NCBI GenBank assembly: GCA_005222975.1 | Contig: NJBI01000079.1 | Span: forward strand, 1-13,034 | Length of the DNA: 13,034 nucleotides | Reading direction: 5' to 3' | Source: Promethearchaeota archaeon Loki_b31 | GTDB taxonomy: Archaea > Asgardarchaeota > Lokiarchaeia > Sigyniarchaeales > SOKP01 | Shown: positions 83 through 13,034 of the stretch, piece by piece | Position numbering within the stretch: the stretch's first letter is position 1 | How the letters are laid out: each line of letters starts with the position of its first letter | Made by a program: the position numbers and the translations under genes | The notes under the pieces: model-generated | What the model was told of the DNA's origin: nothing | Seen by the model: only the letters and a program-made list of their open reading frames with translations | Database searches by the model: none

Positions 83-202
83 TTTTTTTAAAAGATTTGT
101 TTTTTAATATAACTTTAATGTTAAACTTTAAAAAGATTTTTTTTGATTTCTAGTTATATATTAATTAATTCTTCCCAGTTTTATTAAAACTTAAAATTTG
201 TG

Positions 203-1780
203 ATGGAAATTAAGAAAAGATTAAACTTTTTATTTTTTATAACCGACCAACAACGATTTGATCACTTAAGTTGTTATAACAACAAGATAGTCTTAAAAAC
301 ACCAAATATCGATAGTATTGCTAAAGAGGGCGTTAAATTCACTAACTTTTATTGTAATAACCCAATCTGCATGCCTAATCGAAGCACGATATATACTGGG
401 CAATATCCCTCAGTGCACGGTGTTACAACAAATGGACGCAATTTACCTCAAGGTACAAATACCTTTGTTGATATTCTACTTGAATCTGGGACTTACTATA
501 CAGCAAGTTTTGGAAAAATACATTTGAATTACTTTGGTGCCCCTTCTGGCCAATTTAAAAACGCTGTTGAAAGTCAAGAATTTGCCCAACATAGAGATTA
601 TCCTAAATTAACTAACTACTCACCTTATTTTGGGTTGGAGGAGGTGAAAATAGTTTCAGGGCACGGGCCGCTATGTGGGCACCCAGATTACATAAATTGG
701 GTAAAGAAAAAAATAGAAAACAATCCCTCGTTAGGAAAGCCGCTCAGGATTAAGTTAAGTAATCCGGATAATTTAATTCAAACAAAACTTAATATCTCTT
801 TTAACACTTCTGATCCTTTAGTGAAATTACAAGTGCTAAAACATAAAACACCTGAGGAACTTTATTCTACAACATTTGTTAAAGAAAACACAATCAAATT
901 CTTAGAAAGATTTTCAAATGGTTCTTGTTCCAAAGAAAATTTTCTCGTTTTTTGCTCATTTCCTGACCCTCATCATCCTTTCGCACCGCCTGGAAAATAT
1001 TTCGATATGTATAAGCCAGAAGATATAATATTACCTAAAACATTTAACGATGACCATAAAAATAGTTCAGAATTTAATAGAAAACATTATAATACTCTTT
1101 TATCAAGTGAAGGAACTGCAAAAGGGATTTTTCCAATACCAAAAGATTTAACAGAAGAAGGGGCTAAAAATGTAATTGCTGCTTCCTATGGAATGGAAAA
1201 AATGGTTGATGATGCCGTAGGGGAGGTTTTAGATGCTTTAAATAAATTTGACTTGGCAGAAAATACAGTTGTTATATATACTACAGATCATGGCGATTTA
1301 GGTGGAGACCATAGGTTCTTCTTTAAAGGACCATTCTTGTATCAAGGATTAATCAAAATACCCTTTTTAATAAAAGTCCCTAACGGGTTAACAAACGAAG
1401 AATGTAATTCATTAGCTAGTTCAATTGACATTCCTGAGACAATCTTAGAATTAGCTGGAATCCCAATCCCAGCTTTTATGCAAGGAAAAAGTTTAATTCC
1501 AATATTAAATAACACTAAAGAAAAAATTAATGATGATATACTTATTGAAATGAATGATGACCACAATCATGAAAGAACGAGAACCTTAATTACAGACGAA
1601 TGGAGAATCACACTTTTTAGTGATCATGGAGAATTATACAATTTAAAGAATGATATCAATGAAATAAATAATGTGTGGAACGATAAGACTCTTAAAGACA
1701 TTAAACTCGATCTTCTTTTAAAATTGTTTAAGAAAACTAACAACCTAAGTAACCCCGTCATGAGAGATTGTGGTTTTTAA
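203..1780 (+). CDS. Cys-type (formylglycine-dependent) sulfatase, arylsulfatase/choline-sulfatase-like, cytoplasmic
   Basis: Motifs seen: FFITDQQR metal site, CxPxR signature CMPNRSTIYTG, GKIH, DPHHP, TTDHGD and FKG. No signal peptide. ATG at 203 is preferred over the GTG at 200. Confidence 0.93.
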   Translation: MEIKKRLNFLFFITDQQRFDHLSCYNNKIVLKTPNIDSIAKEGVKFTNFYCNNPICMPNRSTIYTGQYPSVHGVTTNGRNLPQGTNTFVDILLESGTYYTASFGKIHLNYFGAPSGQFKNAVESQEFAQHRDYPKLTNYSPYFGLEEVKIVSGHGPLCGHPDYINWVKKKIENNPSLGKPLRIKLSNPDNLIQTKLNISFNTSDPLVKLQVLKHKTPEELYSTTFVKENTIKFLERFSNGSCSKENFLVFCSFPDPHHPFAPPGKYFDMYKPEDIILPKTFNDDHKNSSEFNRKHYNTLLSSEGTAKGIFPIPKDLTEEGAKNVIAASYGMEKMVDDAVGEVLDALNKFDLAENTVVIYTTDHGDLGGDHRFFFKGPFLYQGLIKIPFLIKVPNGLTNEECNSLASSIDIPETILELAGIPIPAFMQGKSLIPILNNTKEKINDDILIEMNDDHNHERTRTLITDEWRITLFSDHGELYNLKNDINEINNVWNDKTLKDIKLDLLLKLFKKTNNLSNPVMRDCGF

Positions 1781-1813
1781 TTTAAGGATTGACAGATTAA
1801 TATTGATTTGCTA

Positions 1814-1844
1814 TGCAAGACTCTCCTTGCAAAAAGTTTTAAAA
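1814..1844 (+). promoter_or_regulatory. Palindrome TGCAAG-N6-CTTGCA abutting a BRE/TATA-like element (AAAAAG-TTTTAAAA) upstream of the GH94-like gene
   Basis: Perfect 6-bp inverted repeat at 1814-1819/1826-1831, followed directly by aaaaagttttaaaa (1831-1844), which has the archaeal purine-rich BRE plus TATA layout. Confidence 0.35.
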
Positions 1845-1919
1845 TAATTCTCTCAAAACTATTAAATTCTACTTAATTTCTCTAAAATAGATTTATTTGA
1901 ATTAGGAAAGATTATAAAG

Positions 1920-4592
1920 ATGAGTAAAAAAGAGTTTGGTTCTGGTTATTTTGGAGAATGGATTGAAGACGAGTTTGGATTACCCGCATATCGTTATACT
2001 TGCGACCAAATAAACGATCCAAAAGCACTCACTCCAATGAATGAAGAGTGGCGTTCAAAAACAGAACACCTTCATCAAGTTGGCAACGATAGATTGGTAG
2101 CTGTTGCATCAAATTACGGTTATATCCAAGTAAGACAAGACGAGGGAGGTCCTAAGTATTTAAATGAGTTTGATCCAAAGCGAGGACAATATGCCGGTGG
2201 TTTCGGATACCTTACTGATGGAGATAGTTTTTTAAGTACATACTATCCTGGTAATGCAGATTCCTTCGAAAGGATATTTGGAATTGGGTACATACAGAAA
2301 AAAGTAATAGGGCACGGTTATAATGTTAACCAAATTATTTTTGCGCCATTTGGTGATGACCCTATTTTAATTTCTCAAATTACAATAACAAATAATCGAG
2401 ATATGCCAGTAGATCTACGCTGGATTGAGTATTGGGGTTGCTGTATGTATCAATTCTCTTCGTCTGCATTTGCGGCACTACTTTCAAAAAAACCTAGTAA
2501 ACATCCAAGAGATATTCGTCACCATTTTAGTAATAAATTTAAACATAAGTTTGAAGAGATTCCTAATCGTGTAGGACTTCAAGAAAATAAATATTTAGAA
2601 GATCAAAAAGAGACGTTTGATCCAACTAACCTTAAACCCACATTTGTAGATTATTTCCCTCCTAAAACATTTTTAGTTTCTTTAGATTCGAAAGCTGACA
2701 CATTAAGCACCAATAGTAAGGACTATTTTGGTCAAGGTGGTGTTGAAACACCAGATGGTCTAAATAGCAAGTTAAAAAATGATATTGATTCTATAGGTGA
2801 TGAAAGTGCTATGTTTCTGGAGCGAAATGTGCAATTAAACACAGGAGAAAGTCGGACTTTATCATTTTTATATGGTTATGTTCCTGATGGATTTGAATTA
2901 GAATCCTTAATTAACAAATACAAACAAATTTACCATAAATTATTTGAAGATTCATGCCAACAATGGAAAAAGAATAGAATCGAATTACAAATTAAAGACG
3001 AACCATGGGTTAATCGCGAAATTTTTTGGCATTATTATTATTTAAGAAGTGCTATGACTTATGACAGCTATTTTAAAGAACATATTCTCTCTCAAGGTCA
3101 TGTTTACCAATACATTATTGGTTTTCAAGGAGCTGCCCGTGATCCCTTGCAACACGCACTTCCGTTTATTTACAGCAACCCGGATATAGTAAAAAATATT
3201 ATAAGGTATACCTTAAAAACAACTCGTAAGAATGGTGAGATACCCTATGGTATTACGGGAAGTGGACAAATATTACCAGTCCCCTTTAAGCCTAGCGATC
3301 AAGAAATGTGGTTACTATGGTTAATAAGCGAATATGTTCTTGGAACTCGTGATGTTGAATTTCTTGATGAAAAAGTTTCCAGATATCCCGTTTATGGATC
3401 TAGAGCAGAAATTGTTAAAGTTCGAGATGTAATAGCACGCTGTTTTCGTCATTTAGTTAAAAAGACGGGGTTTGGATGCCACGGTCTTCAGCGATTATCC
3501 AACGGCGATTGGAACGATGGAGTTGTTATTGGATACATTCCTCCTGAAAAACATAAAGAAATTCAAAAAGAAGCAGAAAGCGTTTTAAATGCTGCAATGG
3601 CTATATACACGCTTGAAATATACTCAGAAATGTTAAAATCCGTAGGTGAACGCGATTTAGCGAATGAAGCACTTAAATATTCTCAATCTCAACGAGAAGC
3701 AGTTAAAGCTCAATGGACTGGAAAATGGTTTAGACGAGCATGGCTTACAGAAGATTTGGGATGGGTTGGTGAAGATCAAATGTGGTTAGAACCTCAACCT
3801 TGGGCTATCATAGGAAATGCTTTAGATCGCGAACAAAAGAAGATTTTAGTTCAATTTATCGATGAACTAGTTCGCAAACCCTCAAAAATTGGCGCTAGGC
3901 TTCATAGCAAGGGTATTGATAGTAAAAGAAATAAAGGACAAGGAGCAAATGCGGGTATTTGGCCCGCAATCAATGGTACATTAATTTGGGCCCTCTCTTT
4001 AGTAAATGGAGAGATGGGATGGGACGAATGGAAAAAAAACTCGCTCGCTTATCATGCTGAGAATTATCCCGATGTTTGGTATGGGATTTGGAGCGGTCCA
4101 GACACCTATAACTCGGATTTATCTAAGTATCCAGGTCAAACTGTTTTTAACGAAGCTTTAATTACTGGCGAACAAGATCCATCTGATGTAGAGGAACTTC
4201 TAGGGCATATGGCAACTTCATGGACTGATTTTCCAGTCTTTAATTTACATCCTCACGCATGGCCATTATATGACACAACTCGCTTAATTGGTATAAATTT
4301 CACGCGAAATGGAGTGAAATTAAATCCTACTTTGCCTAAAGACGACTATAAGTTTAGTACACCCCTTATTGGATTAGAAAAGACTAAAAATGGATATTTA
4401 GGTTGGTACAATCCCGTGAAATTAAGTACATGGGAAATATCATTAAAACTAAGTGAAGAGGAACTCGATCAAATCGATTCTATTCTAATAAATGGAAATG
4501 AAGCTAAGTTTACAATAAAAAAAAGTCAGCTGCTTTGGAGAGGTGAAAATAAACCAGGTAAGCCCCTCCGCTGGGAAATAAAAAAGAAATAA
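1920..4592 (+). CDS. GH94-like (cellobiose/chitobiose phosphorylase-related) glycoside phosphorylase or hydrolase with an (alpha/alpha)6 barrel
   Basis: 890 aa. GH94-type motifs appear in the expected order: ARDPLQH, SDQEMWLLW, NGDWNDG (catalytic Asp motif), AESV, WNGxWF-like WTGKWFRRAW, LEPQPWAII and NAGIW. The N-terminal half is beta-rich. Confidence 0.8.
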   Translation: MSKKEFGSGYFGEWIEDEFGLPAYRYTCDQINDPKALTPMNEEWRSKTEHLHQVGNDRLVAVASNYGYIQVRQDEGGPKYLNEFDPKRGQYAGGFGYLTDGDSFLSTYYPGNADSFERIFGIGYIQKKVIGHGYNVNQIIFAPFGDDPILISQITITNNRDMPVDLRWIEYWGCCMYQFSSSAFAALLSKKPSKHPRDIRHHFSNKFKHKFEEIPNRVGLQENKYLEDQKETFDPTNLKPTFVDYFPPKTFLVSLDSKADTLSTNSKDYFGQGGVETPDGLNSKLKNDIDSIGDESAMFLERNVQLNTGESRTLSFLYGYVPDGFELESLINKYKQIYHKLFEDSCQQWKKNRIELQIKDEPWVNREIFWHYYYLRSAMTYDSYFKEHILSQGHVYQYIIGFQGAARDPLQHALPFIYSNPDIVKNIIRYTLKTTRKNGEIPYGITGSGQILPVPFKPSDQEMWLLWLISEYVLGTRDVEFLDEKVSRYPVYGSRAEIVKVRDVIARCFRHLVKKTGFGCHGLQRLSNGDWNDGVVIGYIPPEKHKEIQKEAESVLNAAMAIYTLEIYSEMLKSVGERDLANEALKYSQSQREAVKAQWTGKWFRRAWLTEDLGWVGEDQMWLEPQPWAIIGNALDREQKKILVQFIDELVRKPSKIGARLHSKGIDSKRNKGQGANAGIWPAINGTLIWALSLVNGEMGWDEWKKNSLAYHAENYPDVWYGIWSGPDTYNSDLSKYPGQTVFNEALITGEQDPSDVEELLGHMATSWTDFPVFNLHPHAWPLYDTTRLIGINFTRNGVKLNPTLPKDDYKFSTPLIGLEKTKNGYLGWYNPVKLSTWEISLKLSEEELDQIDSILINGNEAKFTIKKSQLLWRGENKPGKPLRWEIKKK

Positions 4593-4620
4593 GCAAAAAT
4601 CCTTTATTCATACCATGAAT

Positions 4621-5790
4621 CTAATGGGGTAAAGGGGGAACTTCAGAATCATTCCATAAATCTGCCGTTGGATAATCCCACCATTTTGAGGGAATGTTGG
4701 AATAATTTCCATATTTTTCTAATCCTTTTTCAAAAGCTTTAATGTTCTTTCGAGAAGCCCTGATTACTTTAGGTTGAGGATAAAAATACGCTCCAAATCC
4801 TCCATCTTTCGTACCTAAATTTCGAACCATATGCCAAACTTCTCGCTCAACTTCTTCGGGCGTTCCATGAGTATAAATAGATTGTATGTTAACGCAACCC
4901 CAGAACATTATTTTTCCCCGATATTGCTTTAATTCGTTATATCCACTCATTCTAGGGCTATCAAATTCGATAGAATCTAAACCACAGTCAATGAGTACAG
5001 GTATAAGGCGGTCTACCTTGCCGCAACAGTGAAGATGTAACTCTGCTCCTAATTCATGTGCTGCGTCTACGATTCTTTTATATATTGGTTCGTAAAATTT
5101 TTTAAAAATACGAGGGTTAAAGAATGGTCCGTTTTGTTCTCCTAAATCGTCAGATAGCCAAAAACCGTCAGGTTCTAACCCATACTTAAACGCCATTTTT
5201 ATTTCTTCCACATGATAATCAGTTACATAATTTAACAATTTTTTTAGCTCTTGGGGATTCCTAACATGATCCATCAGATAATTGGAAAAACCCCTCAAAG
5301 CAGAAACTACGTGAGATGGTCCGAATGATTCGAAAATGACCATGTTATACAACTCATCACTAAGCATTTTTTTTAGATTTAAAGCAGCTTTATACCGACT
5401 TCTATCTGATGCTTCTAAACTATATTGCTCCAAATGGTCATCTAACTTTTTTAAATCAGGTAGCGAAGGTCTACCTGGATGCCCCATATTTCTATCATTT
5501 CCTTTCATAGACCATATAATGCCCCATTCGTCCACCTCTTCGTGAGGAATTCTTTTCCAATTAGTACCTTCAAATTCGGGTTGATCTTTCGTCCAATCTG
5601 GTCTTTCCCAACTATTAGGATTTTTATTATGGGGGAATAATCCAATTTCATTTTCTGCAAAACCCGGATTCCAATCTTTTGAGTGAATAAGTGGCAGAGG
5701 AGCGACATCACCAGATACAATATTAAAAATTGGAACTTTATCTGGGCGATTAAAATGGATTGCTGCTCTCACACGTTCTTTTGAATTCAT
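4621..5790 (-). CDS. Uroporphyrinogen decarboxylase (URO-D)/MtaA-CmuA methyltransferase superfamily protein
   Basis: MNSKERVRAAIHFNRPDKVP N-terminus, DEWG, ALRGFSNYL, SDDLGEQNGPFFNP, HLHCCG, WGCVNIQ and GTPEEVEREV are typical of URO-D-like TIM barrels. It is not assignable to true HemE. Confidence 0.88.
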   Translation of the reverse strand: MNSKERVRAAIHFNRPDKVPIFNIVSGDVAPLPLIHSKDWNPGFAENEIGLFPHNKNPNSWERPDWTKDQPEFEGTNWKRIPHEEVDEWGIIWSMKGNDRNMGHPGRPSLPDLKKLDDHLEQYSLEASDRSRYKAALNLKKMLSDELYNMVIFESFGPSHVVSALRGFSNYLMDHVRNPQELKKLLNYVTDYHVEEIKMAFKYGLEPDGFWLSDDLGEQNGPFFNPRIFKKFYEPIYKRIVDAAHELGAELHLHCCGKVDRLIPVLIDCGLDSIEFDSPRMSGYNELKQYRGKIMFWGCVNIQSIYTHGTPEEVEREVWHMVRNLGTKDGGFGAYFYPQPKVIRASRKNIKAFEKGLEKYGNYSNIPSKWWDYPTADLWNDSEVPPLPH

Positions 5791-5930
5791 ATTAGCTACT
5801 TAATAATTAATTCTAATTAAAAGATAAATATTTCTTTTTATATAAAAATATTTAGTTGCCATGATATATTAGCGTTTGAATTAAAAAATAGAAAGAATAT
5901 TATTTTAAATAAATAATATTGGTTGTATAT

Positions 5931-6062
5931 TTAGAGTCCTTTTTCTTTCCTTGCTTCTTCCGTTAATTCTGGAGTACTATCATAACTAGATGCGATTTTA
6001 GACTTTACACACTCTTCACAATATTTTAACCATATCTCTTTTTCGGAGTCTTTACTATCCAT
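5931..6062 (-). CDS. Putative 43-aa small protein with a CxxC motif (or a gene remnant)
   Basis: Hand translation: MDSKDSEKEIWLKYCEECVKSKIASSYDSTPELTEEARKEKGL*. It starts with ATG, ends with TAA, has protein-like E/K-rich composition and higher GC than its flanks, and is too short for the ORF track. Confidence 0.45.
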   Translation of the reverse strand: MDSKDSEKEIWLKYCEECVKSKIASSYDSTPELTEEARKEKGL

Positions 6063-6233
6063 GTCAGCATCAACAAGTTAAGTATTAAAACTCATGAAAT
6101 TAACGTTAATTATCTATTATAAAGTTTATTAAAATTGAATTTTTTATACGCTAAAGGACAACAAATTACCGACATAAATAAAAAGTAAAACTCTACTCGT
6201 CAGCAACAATTATGAATTTTTTTTTAAGGTTTT

Positions 6234-6303
6234 AGAGAGGGGGAGGGGGGTCGTTAAAAGTAAAAGTAAAAGTAAAAATAAACTAAAATTAAATAAATTA
6301 AAC
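6234..6303. repeat. Purine/G tract (AGAGA-G5-A-G6) followed by tandem TAAAAG x3 decaying into TAAA(A)-type units
   Basis: G5 at 6239-6243, G6 at 6245-6250, TAAAAG at 6255-6272 (3 exact copies), then TAAAAA, TAAAC, TAAAAT and further degenerate units. Confidence 0.6.
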
Positions 6304-6422
6304 GCTAATAAGCCATTCAAAAAAGCAATTGGATATTAACATATAGGCTATTTCTAAAAACTTATAATTTTTAAAACAAACTTAGAATCATACAATATAA
6401 TACTTTGTTGAGATTAAAAATC

Positions 6423-7823
6423 ATGGTTGAAAAATGTGACATTTTGGTCGTAGGCGCTGGAACTGCAGGAATGTATCTCAGTTGGCTATTATCTAAAAAG
6501 GGTTATTCAGTTGTAACCATAGAAAAAGATGAGAGGGAAAAAGTAGGTAAAAGGTTAGATGTTATCCACTTTGAGACCGATAGAATTAAAAAAGCTGGCA
6601 TACCGCCGTTTAAAGTAGGAGATCCTGACTGTATTGAAATTCGAGAACATTCAACGCAAGTAACGACGGATTTTACAACAGAAGTTAAAATCAAAGCGCT
6701 TCAAACTATTGTATGTCTTACACCATTTTTAAATAGAATGTATAAGGTGTTAGAAGCAGATGGTGTAAAGCTTGTTTTTTCTTGCAAATTTTTAGAATTA
6801 GTTTTTGACGACGGAAAAATTGTAGGGGTTTTAGTCGAAAAAAATGGGGAACAAATTGAATACTATGCTCGATTAGTTGTCGATGCATCAGGTACGGGTG
6901 CTTCAATCAGAACATCCTTGCCTCAAGACTACGGAATTGAGACTTTTAAATTGGACCCAAGTAGTGTGATGTACGTACTTCTACAATACATTAAGTGGTT
7001 AAACCCAGAAGAAAAACATCCATTACCCGACACAGGATATCAATACTACCTGTTATGGTTCGGTCCGTGTCAGATTGAAAATGGTGCCATTCTGGGAATT
7101 GGGCAACCTGGTTCTTACGAAAATGCTAGAAAAGCAAGAGAAGAGTTCCTTGTAAAAGCTCACTTACCTCCTTATGAAATTGTAAAAGAAGAACAAGGTT
7201 TTACTCCTTATAGAAGACCTCCTTATACTCTTGTAGGTGATGGATTATTCTGCATAGGAGATGCTGCAGCAATCACTTATCCATTTTCGGGGCACGGAGT
7301 TACCGCTACTTGGAATTTGTGCATGATTGCAGCAGAAACTATTGAAAGTACGCTTAAAGAAGAAGGATATATTTCTAAAGATAGGTTATGGGACATTAAT
7401 GTAAAGTATTTTAGAGATCAGGGTGCGAAATTTGCGAGCTTATTAATGCAATTATCTGGTATTCTAAACTTTTCAGCAAAAGAATGGGATTACGTCTTAA
7501 AATCGGGATTACTTTACAAAACTGGGGACGAAGACGAAATTCCTGAACCTAATAAAGAGTACGAAGAAGACATGAGTCTAGGCGAAATACTTAAATTTCT
7601 GTTTAAATTAATTGGCGGCATGCTAAAGAGACAATTATCCTTAAAACACGTGAAAAAATTGCTATCAGCTAATTCACTTGCTGGAAAAATTAAAAAACAT
7701 TACGAAACCTTTCCAGAGGATCCGAACGAATTCGATCAATGGGTTAAGAAAGCAGACCAACTATGGAAGCAAAAACGGGTAGCAATCAAAAAATTAGAAA
7801 CTTTTTCTATTGAGTACATCTAA
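6423..7823 (+). CDS. NAD(P)/FAD-dependent oxidoreductase, geranylgeranyl reductase-like family
   Basis: N-terminal Rossmann motif DILVVGAGTAG with TIEK, DG motif LVVDASG and GD motif IGDAA..TYPFSGHG. ATG at 6423 (MVEKCDILVVG) is a more plausible start than the TTG at 6405. Confidence 0.85.
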   Translation: MVEKCDILVVGAGTAGMYLSWLLSKKGYSVVTIEKDEREKVGKRLDVIHFETDRIKKAGIPPFKVGDPDCIEIREHSTQVTTDFTTEVKIKALQTIVCLTPFLNRMYKVLEADGVKLVFSCKFLELVFDDGKIVGVLVEKNGEQIEYYARLVVDASGTGASIRTSLPQDYGIETFKLDPSSVMYVLLQYIKWLNPEEKHPLPDTGYQYYLLWFGPCQIENGAILGIGQPGSYENARKAREEFLVKAHLPPYEIVKEEQGFTPYRRPPYTLVGDGLFCIGDAAAITYPFSGHGVTATWNLCMIAAETIESTLKEEGYISKDRLWDINVKYFRDQGAKFASLLMQLSGILNFSAKEWDYVLKSGLLYKTGDEDEIPEPNKEYEEDMSLGEILKFLFKLIGGMLKRQLSLKHVKKLLSANSLAGKIKKHYETFPEDPNEFDQWVKKADQLWKQKRVAIKKLETFSIEYI

Positions 7824-7983
7824 AGGTTGAAATTAAAAATAAAAAAAAGTAGTATTCTATTAATATTGTTTCAGGAAGTTAGGAAGCCAATTTTTTTAGG
7901 TTTATAGAATAATTATTAAAAAGTAATGTTGACAGATTACTTAAACACAAGATTTAAAAACATTTAGAATCTAACTATATAAC

Positions 7984-8856
7984 ATGGTTGAATCTAATAA
8001 AGAAGATCAAGTTTTTGAACTAAAAGATGGTCGCAAGCTTGGATATGCTGAAACTGGAGATTTAAACGGCGAACCTATCTTTCATTTCCATGGACATCCC
8101 AGATCTCGTATTGAAATTAGACTTTTTGGTGAAAAACCAAAAGAACATGGAGTTCATTTGATAGCGGTTGATCGCCCGGGAATTGGGCTTTCTGATTTCC
8201 AGCCTGAACGAACCCTTTTAGATTGGCCAGACGATATTATCGAACTAGCTGATCATTTAGGACTAGATAAATTCGTTGTCGAGGGGATATCGGGTGGAGG
8301 TCCTTACGCAGCTGCTTGTGCGTATAAAATCTCTGAAAGGTTAAAATGTTGTGGTATAATTGCCGGGATGGGATTAATTAATTGGAGTAGAAAGGGAATG
8401 ATGCTATCGAATCGTATTTCCTTTTTTATCTCGCGAAGACTTCCATTCCTTATAAAAACGATAGTAAAAGCAGAAAAGAAAGCGTTTGAAGACCAAAAAT
8501 CAATAGAAGATTTTGCTAAAAAACTTCCAGAGCCAGACAGAATATTATTTCAAGATCCTCAAATATTAAATATTTTTATAGAAGAAACCAAAGAAGCTTT
8601 CCGTCCCGGATTAGATGGTGTGGTAATGGAAGAAAAAATATATGCAAAACCATGGGGATTTGATTTAAAGGATATCTCTTCAGATCTGCAGGTATATTTA
8701 TGGCATGGTGAGATGGATGTGTTCGTTCCGAGTTCATTTGGACGGAAGATGTGTGAGTTAATCCCAAATTGTAAGGGATATTTCTTTCCGAATGAAGGTC
8801 ATCTTTCCGTAGGTTATAATCATGCCGATGAAATTCTTGAAACTTTAAAATCTTAA
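7984..8856 (+). CDS. Alpha/beta-fold serine hydrolase
   Basis: LKDGRKLGYAE.G, FHG.P.SR, DRPGIGLSD, nucleophile elbow GISGG, WHGEMD (acid) and NEGH (His). Confidence 0.92.
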   Translation: MVESNKEDQVFELKDGRKLGYAETGDLNGEPIFHFHGHPRSRIEIRLFGEKPKEHGVHLIAVDRPGIGLSDFQPERTLLDWPDDIIELADHLGLDKFVVEGISGGGPYAAACAYKISERLKCCGIIAGMGLINWSRKGMMLSNRISFFISRRLPFLIKTIVKAEKKAFEDQKSIEDFAKKLPEPDRILFQDPQILNIFIEETKEAFRPGLDGVVMEEKIYAKPWGFDLKDISSDLQVYLWHGEMDVFVPSSFGRKMCELIPNCKGYFFPNEGHLSVGYNHADEILETLKS

Positions 8857-8880
8857 AATCAATTTTTTTATTTATTTTAA

Positions 8881-8983
8881 CTTGAGTGTTATTGTGAAAC
8901 GATGTGCAAAAATCCGGCATAAAGCGATAACACCAAGAATCCTATAAAAACAATTAAACCTATATAAAACCTATTTCGATAGG
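8881..8983 (+). other. Structured intergenic element between convergent genes: a long stem-loop (8881-8937) plus a CCTAT-TTCG-ATAGG hairpin (8970-8983); possible ncRNA, 3'UTR element or terminator
   Basis: CTTG(A)GTGTTATTG (8881-8894) pairs with CGATAACACCAAG (8925-8937), giving 13 bp with one bulge and one G-U. Inner stem is TGTGC/GCATA. The G-U pairs favour the + strand. Confidence 0.4.
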
Positions 8984-9024
8984 CATAATAAAAAATAAAA
9001 TAAGAAATAATTTTTGTTTATGTA

Positions 9025-9771
9025 TTAACTAATATCCGAGCCGCATAAGGGACAGAATTTTCCTAATCCGGATAATTTGGTTCCACAATTTGGGCAAAAA
9101 CTACTTGCTACTTTGTTTATGCTAATTGATCGAGACTCCGGTAAGTTCACTTGTATCGGTGATGTTTTCGGAACATCATATAATAACAAGGTATTCAATT
9201 TTGCTAATTTAAAATATCCTATAATTTGATATATAAATCCAATTATTGCAGTGATTATTAAAAATCCTAACGCATTCAATAAAGCAGCCGTTTTTAACTT
9301 ATCGCACCCGTCAATTAATTCATGAGAAATGCTACCTGGAAACATACTCCTATTTTCTTCAAAGAATCGCTTCAAGTTTTTCCATGCTTTCATTTCAGCA
9401 ACCACGCTGGTTATTCCAAATGTTAAACCAGCTAAAATAAGAATTACGCTTATAGAAACGGTTATCCAAAAAGAATCGAAATCAGACGGTATAAAGAAAA
9501 AGAAAACCAAGTTTATAACTCCTATCATTAGCACGATTGTACCACATATTCTTAAAATGAAAGCCCTAACATATTTCGAACGAAATTCCTCTAAATATTC
9601 GTTATTTAATTTAAGATTTGCCTTTTTGATATTTCCTAAAGCAATAAATATAAAGATTAACGCTATTAAGCTCGTCACACCAGTAACTATACTTAAAACG
9701 GTACAAATTGCTACAATTTGCATATTTTTCCCAAATTCGTAGAAATCTTTTCTAACATCCATATTTGACAT
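9025..9771 (-). CDS. Multi-pass membrane protein with C-terminal double zinc ribbon (DUF973/DUF996-like archaeal architecture)
   Basis: Several hydrophobic segments separated by amphipathic helices, a P/S-rich linker and C-terminal FCPNCG...FCPLCG. Confidence 0.8.
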   Translation of the reverse strand: MSNMDVRKDFYEFGKNMQIVAICTVLSIVTGVTSLIALIFIFIALGNIKKANLKLNNEYLEEFRSKYVRAFILRICGTIVLMIGVINLVFFFFIPSDFDSFWITVSISVILILAGLTFGITSVVAEMKAWKNLKRFFEENRSMFPGSISHELIDGCDKLKTAALLNALGFLIITAIIGFIYQIIGYFKLAKLNTLLLYDVPKTSPIQVNLPESRSISINKVASSFCPNCGTKLSGLGKFCPLCGSDIS

Positions 9772-9914
9772 TTTTATAAATCCATTTTTTGATATATTTA
9801 CTTAATATATTTTTTGTCATTTAATATCATTATAGGAGTCCATTAATTGCTTTGAGAATATTTTTATATATAATTAAATTGAGATATAAGTTTAAATTTT
9901 AGATTCGAGAATTT

Positions 9915-10745
9915 CTAAAAGAAGCGTTGGATATATTCAATACTTTCTGGTAAATCTTCCACTTTATGCAGTTCCATAATCATTGCGCCTTTATAATTAA
10001 ACTTTTTTGCTAATTCAAATACCAATTGAAAATCTACTGAGCCTTTTCCAAGAGTAGGATGAATATCTAAATCATTCTTAAAATGTTCAACTAAATGGAT
10101 ATTTTTAATACGATTATGTAATTTATTCCATATCTCTTCAATATTATCCTTACAAGATGCAGTATGACCTGTATCCCACGCTAAGAAGATATCCCCTCGA
10201 TTAATATCGGAAAAGAATTTATTAAACTCGTCATGATTCAGAAAAAAGCCAGCATTTCTCGGCATATTCTCTAAAGATGTAATTAATTGGAAGCTTTTTA
10301 TTTTTTCTAGTAAAAAATTAACTGCGTCTATAAGGCGATTATTAACGCCATTATACCACTGGTGTAAAAATTGCGCATTTCCTGGATGAATAGTAAAAAT
10401 TTCTGCTCCAATTGCCTTGCTTACTTCAGCTGATTTTATGTAACATTCTATTGTAGCGTTTAAAATCCATGGATTATGAGTGCACAAGCTTAAATACGCA
10501 TAAGGTGCATGGAATTGTTTTTTGATAGAAGGAAATGAATTGCATAAATCGATAAACGCTTGTTTTTCTTCAGAAACTAAGATTTCAGGAGGATCCAAGA
10601 TTAATTCACAGATTTTTATGTCATTTCTTTCAGCGAAATTAAAAGTTCTCTCAATTGCATTGAGCAACAATTCTTTTGAACTTTTAAATTTTCCGCGATT
10701 AATATTATCGTAAATAAAGGCTATAGAGCCAAGTCCAAGTTTCAT
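9915..10745 (-). CDS. Sugar phosphate isomerase/epimerase / AP-endonuclease-2 family TIM-barrel metalloenzyme
   Basis: Motifs in order: QFHAP, TIHPG, SLENMP, WDTGH, IHL, DIH..LGKG.VDF and IMEL. Confidence 0.88.
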   Translation of the reverse strand: MKLGLGSIAFIYDNINRGKFKSSKELLLNAIERTFNFAERNDIKICELILDPPEILVSEEKQAFIDLCNSFPSIKKQFHAPYAYLSLCTHNPWILNATIECYIKSAEVSKAIGAEIFTIHPGNAQFLHQWYNGVNNRLIDAVNFLLEKIKSFQLITSLENMPRNAGFFLNHDEFNKFFSDINRGDIFLAWDTGHTASCKDNIEEIWNKLHNRIKNIHLVEHFKNDLDIHPTLGKGSVDFQLVFELAKKFNYKGAMIMELHKVEDLPESIEYIQRFF

Positions 10746-11015: not shown

Positions 11016-12383
11016 ATGTCTAACAATACAGAAGTTAATTTATTGGATAATTATACCTTTTTTGTAATACCAAGTTGGGGAAATTTACTCGACTATCCAA
11101 CTTTAGGTAAATATGCTAACCATAAAGTATCGAAAATAACCCAAGATCTAGTTATATTTTTTGGGGGATCTGAATGTGCGGTTTCAACGGAGAGAGGAAC
11201 TATATATTATCTTTTTGGTATAGGATATTATTATACTAAATTTGAGCTTCAAAGTGGAAGTTATATTATCGACAATAGACAATTAACGGGTTTGATCCTG
11301 TCAGATTTCTTATACGATCATTTAGCAACATCAAAAAATATTACACTAGAAAACGATCGCGATGTAATCGTTAGTGAGAACTTATTTAAGTTACCAATAG
11401 ATTTGTCTTATCAATCTGAAACTAAGCGTACATTTATTCAAGGAACGCTTATGAGAAATTTATTTATTCCATATAAAGATATCTTTTTAGAATTGATGGA
11501 AACTTTGAAAAAACCCCAATCTTTCCAAATAGATAAAACTAGTCCCATGCTTTTAAGCACGCACTGGGATTTCTACAATCAAATTTTAATTTCTTCTGAA
11601 ATGGATCATGAATTGAAAGCAAATTATACGAGCCCAACAGCTGGATTAAACGGAATTAAAATTGGTGCTAAAAACCACTTAAAAAGCTATTTTTCACAGC
11701 GGGATTTACAATACATTCAGGAATCGACTTTAAAATTGAAAAGGGTCTATTCTATGATGGAATACGATCCTATGTATTTGTTCTCAATAATCAGAAATGC
11801 TTCTGCTTTGTTGAGATCAGAAATAGTATCTACTAACTTTCAAAAAAGTGATAAAAACAATAAAAAAATACTAAAAGAATCAATTTTTATCTCTGCTGAA
11901 CCCCAGATTAATTCATTCGTCAATTGGCCAGAACAATTTAGAAGAAAAACAAAAGACGAATTGGAAAAATCGGTCGTACAAGTAGCTAATAAGATTTATC
12001 AACCTAACGAAGTTGACAAAAGTGCGTTACCTTTCAAGGAATACAGGAACGAGCAATACCAATTTGAAATTAGAACAATGAAGAGACCTATTGTTGAGTT
12101 AAAACCACTCCCTAACATGCCAACTAGTAACTCGTTAGATATTCTTTTAACTGTAAAGGATATCGTAAATAAAGATTACGATGTTAGATCTATAGGGAAG
12201 GCGCTTGAAATCGCACGAGATTACATCAAAAGTATGCTCTTACATTCAAATATTTTATGGGATATGAGTAAATTTGCCAATATCTTTCAACACACAGAAC
12301 CAAATTTAGGGTTGAGCCCCAAAGAGAAATTCGAATTGATAGAAAAAATCAATAAATGGATTAACCTAATAAAAAAAAGATAA
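11016..12383 (+). CDS. Uncharacterised 455-aa protein: N-terminal alpha/beta region, K/E/P-rich linker and C-terminal ~90-aa helical bundle
   Basis: Long ATG-initiated ORF with codon usage like its neighbours and no recognisable catalytic motif. Its stop lies 23 nt before the next ATG. Confidence 0.8.
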   Translation: MSNNTEVNLLDNYTFFVIPSWGNLLDYPTLGKYANHKVSKITQDLVIFFGGSECAVSTERGTIYYLFGIGYYYTKFELQSGSYIIDNRQLTGLILSDFLYDHLATSKNITLENDRDVIVSENLFKLPIDLSYQSETKRTFIQGTLMRNLFIPYKDIFLELMETLKKPQSFQIDKTSPMLLSTHWDFYNQILISSEMDHELKANYTSPTAGLNGIKIGAKNHLKSYFSQRDLQYIQESTLKLKRVYSMMEYDPMYLFSIIRNASALLRSEIVSTNFQKSDKNNKKILKESIFISAEPQINSFVNWPEQFRRKTKDELEKSVVQVANKIYQPNEVDKSALPFKEYRNEQYQFEIRTMKRPIVELKPLPNMPTSNSLDILLTVKDIVNKDYDVRSIGKALEIARDYIKSMLLHSNILWDMSKFANIFQHTEPNLGLSPKEKFELIEKINKWINLIKKR

Positions 12384-12406
12384 TTATTTTAAACTGGTTT
12401 CCTACT

Positions 12407-13034
12407 ATGGTAAATTATAAGTCTATTATTAAGAGTTTGCAAAAACATTATTCTGACGCAACCGAAGTAGTAGTCGTTGGTAACAAAGGGAAGGTTATTT
12501 ATTCCACTAGTAATTGGAGCGTGTCGAAAGATATTAAGGCCGTCTTATTTAGTTGGGGTAGTGGTAGTGCTCAATTTGTGAATATGAACGGTATCAGATA
12601 TTCAGTACTTCAAATGTCACCCGAAAGATTTATAGCAACTAACAGAAAGAAAAAAGGACACTTAGTTGGAGCATCAATCCTTGGTAGTGACATATCTCTC
12701 ATAGCTCACATAAAACCTAAAGCTAAAGGGTGGATGCACATGGCGTATCCCGCAGTTACGAGAGCAGCAGCTATGATGATAAAAGGATCAAAGTCACAAT
12801 TTGTTGAAACGGAAGTAGATGTTTCCGTTGAAAACGAACTTATCGCAAAAAGCAGTAGTATGGTAAAACCTACGATCGATCCATATCTCAAAGCTGAAGT
12901 GGAAGGATTTTTAGAATGGATTAACAATCCTCAAGGCTTAACTTCTTATCTCCTTCATTCATTACAAGAAAACGATCCATATAGAATCTCCAAACTTGCG
13001 GAGATTTATAATGAATTATATAGGATTTTTTACA
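12407..13034 (+). CDS. Asgard-type profilin domain protein with C-terminal extension (partial, runs off right edge; at least 209 aa)
   Basis: Hand translation: MVNYKSIIKSLQKHYSDATEVVVVGNKGKVIYSTSNWSVSKDIKAVLFSWGSGSAQFVNMNGIRYSVLQMSPERFIATNRKKKGHLVGASILGSDISLIAHIKPKAKGWMHMAYPAVTRAAAMMIKGSKSQFVETEVDVSVENELIAKSSSMVKPTIDPYLKAEVEGFLEWINNPQGLTSYLLHSLQENDPYRISKLAEIYNELYRIFY. There is no stop in 209 codons. Residues 1-126 follow the pattern I recall for Loki/Odin profilins: helix, hhhG.xGKhI..T.NW, helix, GI[KR]Y, ER.h.TN...KGHh, LIA.h.P and a final helix. Confidence 0.8.
   Translation, partial: MVNYKSIIKSLQKHYSDATEVVVVGNKGKVIYSTSNWSVSKDIKAVLFSWGSGSAQFVNMNGIRYSVLQMSPERFIATNRKKKGHLVGASILGSDISLIAHIKPKAKGWMHMAYPAVTRAAAMMIKGSKSQFVETEVDVSVENELIAKSSSMVKPTIDPYLKAEVEGFLEWINNPQGLTSYLLHSLQENDPYRISKLAEIYNELYRIFY

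Follow-up and report, generated by a model that had tools for sequence, protein, structure and literature searches.

The open reading frame that runs off the end of the window, by which we mean the whole 13,034-base stretch of DNA analysed here, encodes a member of the Asgard profilin superfamily. Its N-terminal domain has the seven-stranded profilin fold and is followed by a linker and by a second, C-terminal domain, a three-helix module of ~55 aa that is an autonomous unit. The gene is an extra paralogue, present in the genome beside a canonical Loki profilin and two further two-domain copies. The distribution of its C-terminal module, which is also carried by Ras-like GTPases, suggests a docking or targeting function.

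The window is an entire contig (C62) of a 3.52-Mb genome assembled in 99 contigs with 31.5% GC. As the sequence-only reading had described, the frame opens with an ATG at position 12407 and leaves the contig after 209 codons without a stop, and its translation contains every motif quoted in that reading (VVVVGNKGKVIYSTSNW, GIRY, PERFIATNRKKKGHL, LIAHIKP, IDPYLKAEVEGFLEWINNPQGLTSYL and DPYRISKLAEIYNELYRIF). At this GC content about 7.7% of random codons are stops, and the probability of a 209-codon open frame, calculated from the base composition, is ~5e-8, so the frame does not owe its length to chance. A search among the other contigs of the genome found no overlap with the end of the window. 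The complete version of the gene was recovered from another assembly: the database protein P0002 is 100% identical to the window ORF, has 210 aa and ends in ...RIFYT, and its gene sits within a 60.9-kb contig (L001) where the gene order is that of the window and all 209 shared codons match. Because these sequences are identical and the complete protein has 210 aa, the window ORF lacks only its last codon and the stop (Table 1). The gene had been called hidden; it is indeed cut by the contig end, but with just one codon and the stop gone it is less hidden than was supposed.

Table 1. Positions in the window of the profilin paralogue, its domains and the upstream gene.
Feature	Position	Strand	Basis or remark
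455-aa gene	11016..12383	+	frequent same-strand neighbour of the orthogroup
Four-helix bundle at the C-terminus of this gene's product (residues 369-455)	12120..12380	+	AF2 pLDDT 80-93
Intergenic spacer, 23 nt	12384..12406	+	ORF coordinates
Two-domain profilin paralogue, coding sequence (codons 1-209 of 210)	12407..13033	+	ORF list, P0002, L001
Profilin-fold domain, residues 1-127, pI 10.3	12407..12787	+	PDB matches, AF2, Foldseek, hhalign
Variable acidic Ser/Glu-rich linker, residues 128-155	12788..12871	+	predicted disordered, indels, pI 4.25
C-terminal three-helix module, residues 156-209(210)	12872..13033	+	AF2 helices, conservation

The identity of the N-terminal domain rests on sequence, profile and fold comparisons that agree with one another. 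When the paralogue was compared with all PDB chains by phmmer, four matches were obtained, all of them Asgard profilins from Loki, Odin and Thor (5zzb, 5zza, 5yed/5yee and 7pbh), with 5zzb as the best (E 9e-10), and a profile made from 24 orthologues retrieved the same four profilins at E 1e-10 (hmmsearch). By hhalign, the orthologue alignment (A1) matched an alignment of 15 canonical single-domain Asgard profilins with 99.8% probability (E 2e-28, 121 columns). The AF2 model computed from A1 has a mean pLDDT of 81, and its N domain (pLDDT 82-92) contains a helix at residues 4-14, strands at 18-24, 30-33, 57-60, 63-70, 74-78, 85-90 and 97-102, and a helix at 109-125. The predicted domain is therefore a seven-stranded antiparallel sheet between N- and C-terminal helices, the topology by which the profilin fold has been defined (PMC8410842). 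In a Foldseek search with this model, Loki and Odin profilins occupied ranks 1-5 (E ~1e-10, TM 0.77-0.81) and ranks 1-40 were exclusively profilins; the first Roadblock protein appeared at rank 41 (E 9e-4, rmsd 6.4). Similarly, in an ESM Atlas shape search a eukaryotic profilin cluster was matched with a TM of 0.86, versus 0.64 for a Roadblock cluster.

A Pfam scan of the query gave no Profilin (PF00235) match at E-values up to 1, which by the gathering cut-off of 25 bits places it outside the family, and the canonical Loki-type profilin of the same genome likewise gave no PF00235 match. The two other two-domain paralogues, on contigs C88 and C50, score below the threshold (20.6 and 20.0 bits), and a two-domain relative, P0452, which is 36% identical to the query over a span covering both domains, exceeds it with 26.0 bits and is labelled 'profilin family protein' at NCBI. 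We also considered membership of the Roadblock/LC7/MglB family and rejected it, in view of the seven strands of the model, the lack of a match to Pfam Robl_LC7 (PF03259) in the query, and the Foldseek rank and Atlas TM given above. The sequence-only reading had proposed a profilin domain from motifs of Loki profilins, and had named a better fit to a Roadblock or longin fold as the result that would speak against it. Since the strong sequence, fold and hhalign matches are all profilins, a Roadblock or longin identity is unsupported, and the motifs named in that reading correspond to genuine homology.

Characterised single-domain profilins fill ~120-150 aa. The protein encoded here departs from that architecture, as it has 210 aa, a linker and a second domain that is predicted to fold. 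In the AF2 model, residues 127-145 have a pLDDT below 50 and are predicted to be disordered, and the C module consists of helices at 162-172, 177-185 and 191-209 (pLDDT 80-88); because the pTM of the two-domain model is 0.58, the placement of the domains relative to each other is undefined. The serine- and glutamate-rich linker that had been read from the letters is recovered as an acidic stretch, and the extra helical domain as three helices that are conserved as strongly as the N domain. Among the 24 orthologues the mean pairwise identity is 0.74 in the N domain, 0.43 in the linker, which also carries indels, and 0.72 in the C domain, and in the codons of the C domain, compared with three diverged orthologous loci, synonymous differences equal or exceed the non-synonymous ones. 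By these patterns, both domains are under similar purifying selection.

A trivial explanation for this architecture would be an assembly or sequencing artefact, in which a single-domain profilin has been joined to downstream sequence by loss of a stop near codon 127-130. The position of the gene at a contig edge invites that suspicion. An independent assembly, however, contains the identical, uninterrupted gene inside a contig (L001), and a word-indexed search yielded 338 homologues, with lengths of 188-226 aa for nearly all of the 120 listed. More than 300 homologues of ~200-226 aa, from many samples, have the two domains in a single frame. An artefact is therefore refuted as the origin of the fusion, and the purifying selection on the C module points the same way. 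We consider the probability of an artefact to be negligible.

Where else does the C module occur? An exhaustive search of 1.84 billion representatives returned 127 relatives, and the HMM of the C module was positive in 45; a profile search restricted to longer proteins found at least 681 carriers, of which those with names come almost all from Promethearchaeota/Lokiarchaeota MAGs. The module is found in two-domain proteins of ~205-225 aa like the one described here, behind far longer Lys- or Pro-rich linkers (P0123, P0130, P0132, P0136), as the C-terminal part of Pfam-Ras GTPases (P0209, P0214, P0216) and of zinc-ribbon proteins (P0219), and alone in short ORFs; in P0133 the order is inverted, with the C module at the N-terminus, followed by a Pro-rich linker and then the profilin-like domain. 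An HMM scan of all frames of the window's own genome detected four C modules, three in the two-domain proteins (C62, C88 and C50) and a free one in C93. The latter is a 53-aa ORF with its own ATG that contains only the C module (L016:1883-2044, minus strand; HMM E 1e-12), and it could act as a competitor or an adaptor for the interactions of the other C modules. No relative of the C module was found among described families when the C-terminal region was searched separately: 29 modules gave no match in Pfam, a profile search of the PDB had as its best result a chance match of 16 residues to Pcc1 (E 0.011), and neither NCBIfam nor an ESM Atlas feature search produced a relative. A comparison with the family of the upstream 455-aa protein by hhalign gave 0.5%. 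The sequence-only reading had suggested that the extra domain could dimerise, tether or autoinhibit the protein, or possibly replace polyproline-based recruitment. Because Ras-like GTPases also carry the module at their C-terminus and a free-standing form exists, we favour a role in tethering or docking. In several proteins of other genomes (P0133, P0154, P0185, P0231, P0209, P0214), Ras-family GTPases are linked by Pro-rich stretches such as PPLPPPSLHPPPPPK to a profilin-like domain in some cases and to the C module in others. The presence of polyproline beside a profilin fold in the Ras fusions recalls the profilin-polyproline recruitment of eukaryotes.

The genome contains seven profilin-like domains. 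One of them, encoded on C37 (C37:3439-3840, in L013), is a clear orthologue of Loki profilin-1/-2 (E 2e-58 to 5yed), and its coexistence with the two-domain genes on C62, C88 and C50 bears out the proposal that the window gene is a multidomain paralogue. The two-domain copies on C88 (15216-15821, plus strand) and C50 (5430-6059, plus strand) are acidic proteins with sub-threshold Pfam Profilin scores, and two short single-domain profilin-like copies lie on C70 (5562-5948, plus strand) and C94 (24533-24904, minus strand). Actin is represented by a lokiactin gene (C75:68705-69817), by a second actin-family gene and by a 186-aa C-terminal half of actin. In an unrooted tree of 58 profilin-like domains, obtained by a quick search from which rows with fewer than 95 HMM positions, among them C88 and C50, were excluded, the query groups with two-domain forms in a clade with good support, apart from a clade of canonical single-domain profilins and from a third made up of the forms fused to TrmB, GTPase or coiled-coil segments.

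We sampled 301 genomes across the phylum to follow the two-domain form. Each of the 68 genomes sampled from the window's family, and each of the seven from its sister family in the same order, has a full-length, two-domain match; outside that order, the matches in the 301 genomes are confined to residues ~3-124 and lie in ORFs of ~125-140 aa, and no two-domain form was found there. The profilin fold is a promiscuous module in this lineage. Proteins P0179, P0222, P0236 and P0232 combine a profilin-like domain with a Sir2, leucine-rich repeat or leucine carboxyl methyltransferase domain, and in the window's genome the 186-aa actin ORF is directly followed by the gene for a 413-aa protein that begins with a profilin-like domain and also has a TrmB-type wHTH (PF01978, E 1e-10) (C46:50158-52052, minus strand, equivalent to L012:5156-7050, minus strand). 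The 186-aa ORF covers only PF00022 positions 217-407 (E 9e-58), the C-terminal half of actin, and no N-terminal actin half to go with it was found in the genome. An unrelated metagenome contig (L014) carries a 333-aa actin-family gene, a 67-aa ORF and then P0195, another profilin-like protein with TrmB; the pairing is absent at a third locus, L015. The profilin-like+TrmB protein may be a transcription regulator that senses actin.

Conservation throughout the superfamily is concentrated where strand 2 ends (N-W), in helix 2 and in strands 4-6, the last of which contribute G62, K/R64, Y65, L68, Q69, E73, R74, A77, T78, N79, G84 and H85. The resulting beta4-beta6 motif, G-I-[KR]-Y-x-[VI]-[LV]-[QE]...E-R-x-[IV]-[AG]-T-N...K-G-H, is common to the paralogue and to the Loki and Odin profilins that have been co-crystallised with actin, and we take this conserved cluster to be the actin-contacting face of profilin-actin complexes. 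Members that carry a TrmB, Sir2, LRR or methyltransferase fusion retain the motif too, and for that reason it may be structural and not actin-specific. What distinguishes the orthogroup is its charge: the pI of the N domain is 10.3 in the protein described here and 9.9-10.5 in 24 of 24 orthologues, compared with 4.7 and 5.2 in the two-domain paralogues and 6.6 in the canonical profilin encoded alongside them. Both the linker and the C module are acidic. The orthogroup is furthermore without a segment of 6-7 residues that is present after helix 2 in Loki profilin-1/2.

The gene immediately upstream codes for a 455-aa protein. Tight same-strand pairing of the two genes, with gaps of 8-50 nt, was found in L001, L005, L008/L009 and 21 genomes, the latter out of about 33 family-level genomes in which both genes could be placed by coordinate comparison, and the two genes lie side by side in three independent contexts that differ in all their remaining neighbours. 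The genes are apart in L006/L007, in several genomes of the family (about a third) and in the sister family, where both still exist; a 459-aa gene without Pfam match near the L006/L007 orthologue was considered and proved not to be a homologue of the 455-aa protein. From the short gap and the recurrent pairing, co-transcription of the two genes in the window is probable. The 455-aa protein has 358 homologues (55-94% identical among the matches listed), with longer paralogues in related genomes encoded by open frames of ~620-750 aa, and no match in Pfam, NCBIfam, PDB sequences or the Atlas. Its model (pLDDT 72) begins with an acidic part rich in beta strands, continues with an alpha/beta region and a disordered segment, and ends in a four-helix bundle. 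Foldseek returned nothing above noise for the N-terminal and middle domains. For the bundle, the best Foldseek match was the C-terminal domain of the ESCRT-I protein Vps28 (2j9w), with a probability of 1.0 but an E-value of 0.08 and a TM of 0.70, and the same domain (2j9u) was also the best match in VIA-align, with a Z of 11.3 (rmsd 2.2 over 87 residues; next match Z 8.8), a value below the safe level of the tool for helical bundles and within the range of generic ones. We treat the predicted resemblance to the Vps28 C-terminal domain as a lead only. The rest of the window (200-10745) looks ordinary and codes for a sulfatase, a GH94-like phosphorylase, a URO-D-like protein, an FAD-dependent oxidoreductase, an alpha/beta hydrolase, a DUF973 membrane protein with a zinc ribbon and a xylose-isomerase-like TIM barrel.

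We propose that the profilin domain would bind an actin-family protein through its beta4-beta6 face, and that its high positive charge (pI ~10) probably adds affinity for an acidic partner, for example anionic lipids, or alters the target. The C module would act as a protein-protein docking or targeting unit and bring the profilin domain to a hub that it would share with the Ras-like GTPases bearing the same module, with the probably co-transcribed 455-aa protein as a likely working partner of the orthogroup. Taken as a whole, this picture of actin binding, docking to a partner or hub shared with GTPases and co-operation with the 455-aa protein is the one that we favour, with modest confidence. 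A link to actin within the superfamily receives circumstantial support from the profilin-like+TrmB gene, which adjoins an actin-family gene in two independent loci.

Apart from the artefact considered above, two other readings deserve attention. The domain could have a profilin fold and a Roadblock/MglB-like function, regulating or scaffolding small Ras-like GTPases instead of actin, and the C module would mark the components of one GTPase signalling system. Two members carry the JGI name 'regulator of Ras-like GTPase activity (Roadblock/LC7/MglB)'; the Pfam-Ras GTPases P0154, P0185 and P0231 have a related profilin-like domain fused directly to them; the C module is common to Ras GTPases and the paralogue; and profilin, Roadblock and longin proteins, all of which have expanded in Asgard archaea, are built on a common core fold (PMC10933270; bioRxiv 10.1101/2020.10.19.343400). 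The strong sequence and fold matches, however, are all to profilins and none to Roadblock proteins, and the extra strands of the model replace the half of the Roadblock central helix that serves for dimerisation (topology as in PMC10933270). Moreover, the fusion to GTPases fits GTPase-controlled actin regulation equally well, and we regard a Roadblock-like function as unlikely.

The second of these readings places the protein outside actin biology, as a generic interaction or sensor module whose basic domain binds anionic lipids or another acidic ligand and which, together with the 455-aa protein, forms a membrane adaptor. The basic pI sets all 24 orthologues apart from the two-domain paralogues and the canonical profilin of the genome; profilin-like domains precede TrmB, Sir2, LRR and LCM domains in the manner of sensor domains; PIP2 binding, though not polyproline binding, has been reported for Loki and Odin profilins (PMC8410842); and the bundle of the 455-aa neighbour resembles the Vps28 C-terminal domain. 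Against this, neither a lipid-binding motif nor a transmembrane segment was identified, the likeness to Vps28 falls under the level considered safe for helical bundles, and charge by itself is weak evidence. We find such an adaptor distinctly unlikely, and return to docking of an actin-binding profilin as the preferred reading. Its boldest form, which we put forward as speculative and doubtful, would make the C module a new Asgard docking domain that couples profilin-type actin regulators to Ras-like GTPases, with free mini-proteins as competitors, and would thereby give Lokiarchaeales a GTPase-to-actin circuit in which the basic orthogroup and its 455-aa partner form the membrane-proximal arm. 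If true, such a circuit would have arisen independently of, or before, the eukaryotic Rho/formin/profilin logic.

Profilin is among the few actin regulators common to Asgard archaea and eukaryotes, and it has been studied so far as single-domain forms. Our results show that one Asgard order has turned the profilin fold into a modular toolkit, with seven copies in this genome, with fusions in its relatives to Ras GTPases and to TrmB, Sir2, LRR and methyltransferase domains, and with a previously undescribed C-terminal module common to profilin-like proteins and Ras-like GTPases. The literature searched here describes single-domain Asgard profilins, their N-terminal extensions and the expansion of Roadblock, longin and profilin proteins (PMC10933270; PMC8410842; bioRxiv 10.1101/2020.10.19.343400), and in our full-text searches neither a C-terminal profilin domain nor its sharing with GTPases was described. 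The superfamily assignment itself is known beforehand for at least one two-domain relative, given the database label mentioned above. Since cultured relatives exist, these proteins can be tested.

How does the paralogue compare with known systems? Judged from its sequence, it varies a known actin regulator in a lineage-specific way. With the Loki and Odin profilins it has in common the fold, sequence homology, the beta4-beta6 motif and the phylum. The known Asgard profilins, in contrast, are single-domain proteins of ~120-136 aa, to which the paralogue adds a linker and a C module predicted to be folded; it is also far more basic than the canonical profilin of its genome (pI 10.3 versus 6.6) and is without the segment that follows helix 2 in Loki profilin-1/2. 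The Heimdall and Thor profilins (6YRR, 7PBH; PMC8410842) are likewise Asgard profilins in which an appended segment modulates function, and they are detectable relatives of the paralogue in sequence and fold searches. Their extension, however, is a disordered N-terminal tail of ~20 residues, whereas that of the paralogue is a folded C-terminal domain also present in other proteins. The Asgard Roadblock/LC7/MglB proteins (9JUE, 9JQ8; PMC10933270) have a related alpha/beta core, have expanded in Asgard archaea and are linked or fused to small GTPases (PMC10933270). Roadblock proteins have five strands and dimerise through a central helix, whereas the paralogue has the seven-stranded profilin topology and matches Roadblock proteins weakly.

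A last parallel is offered by the eukaryotic small GTPases, in which C-terminal targeting depends on a hypervariable region plus a CAAX box. Both these tails and the C module are short C-terminal elements that follow a flexible, often Pro-rich linker, and by analogy the C module is plausibly used for localisation. Unlike these tails, it is a folded three-helix domain without a cysteine lipidation motif, is shared with profilin-like proteins and also occurs free-standing.
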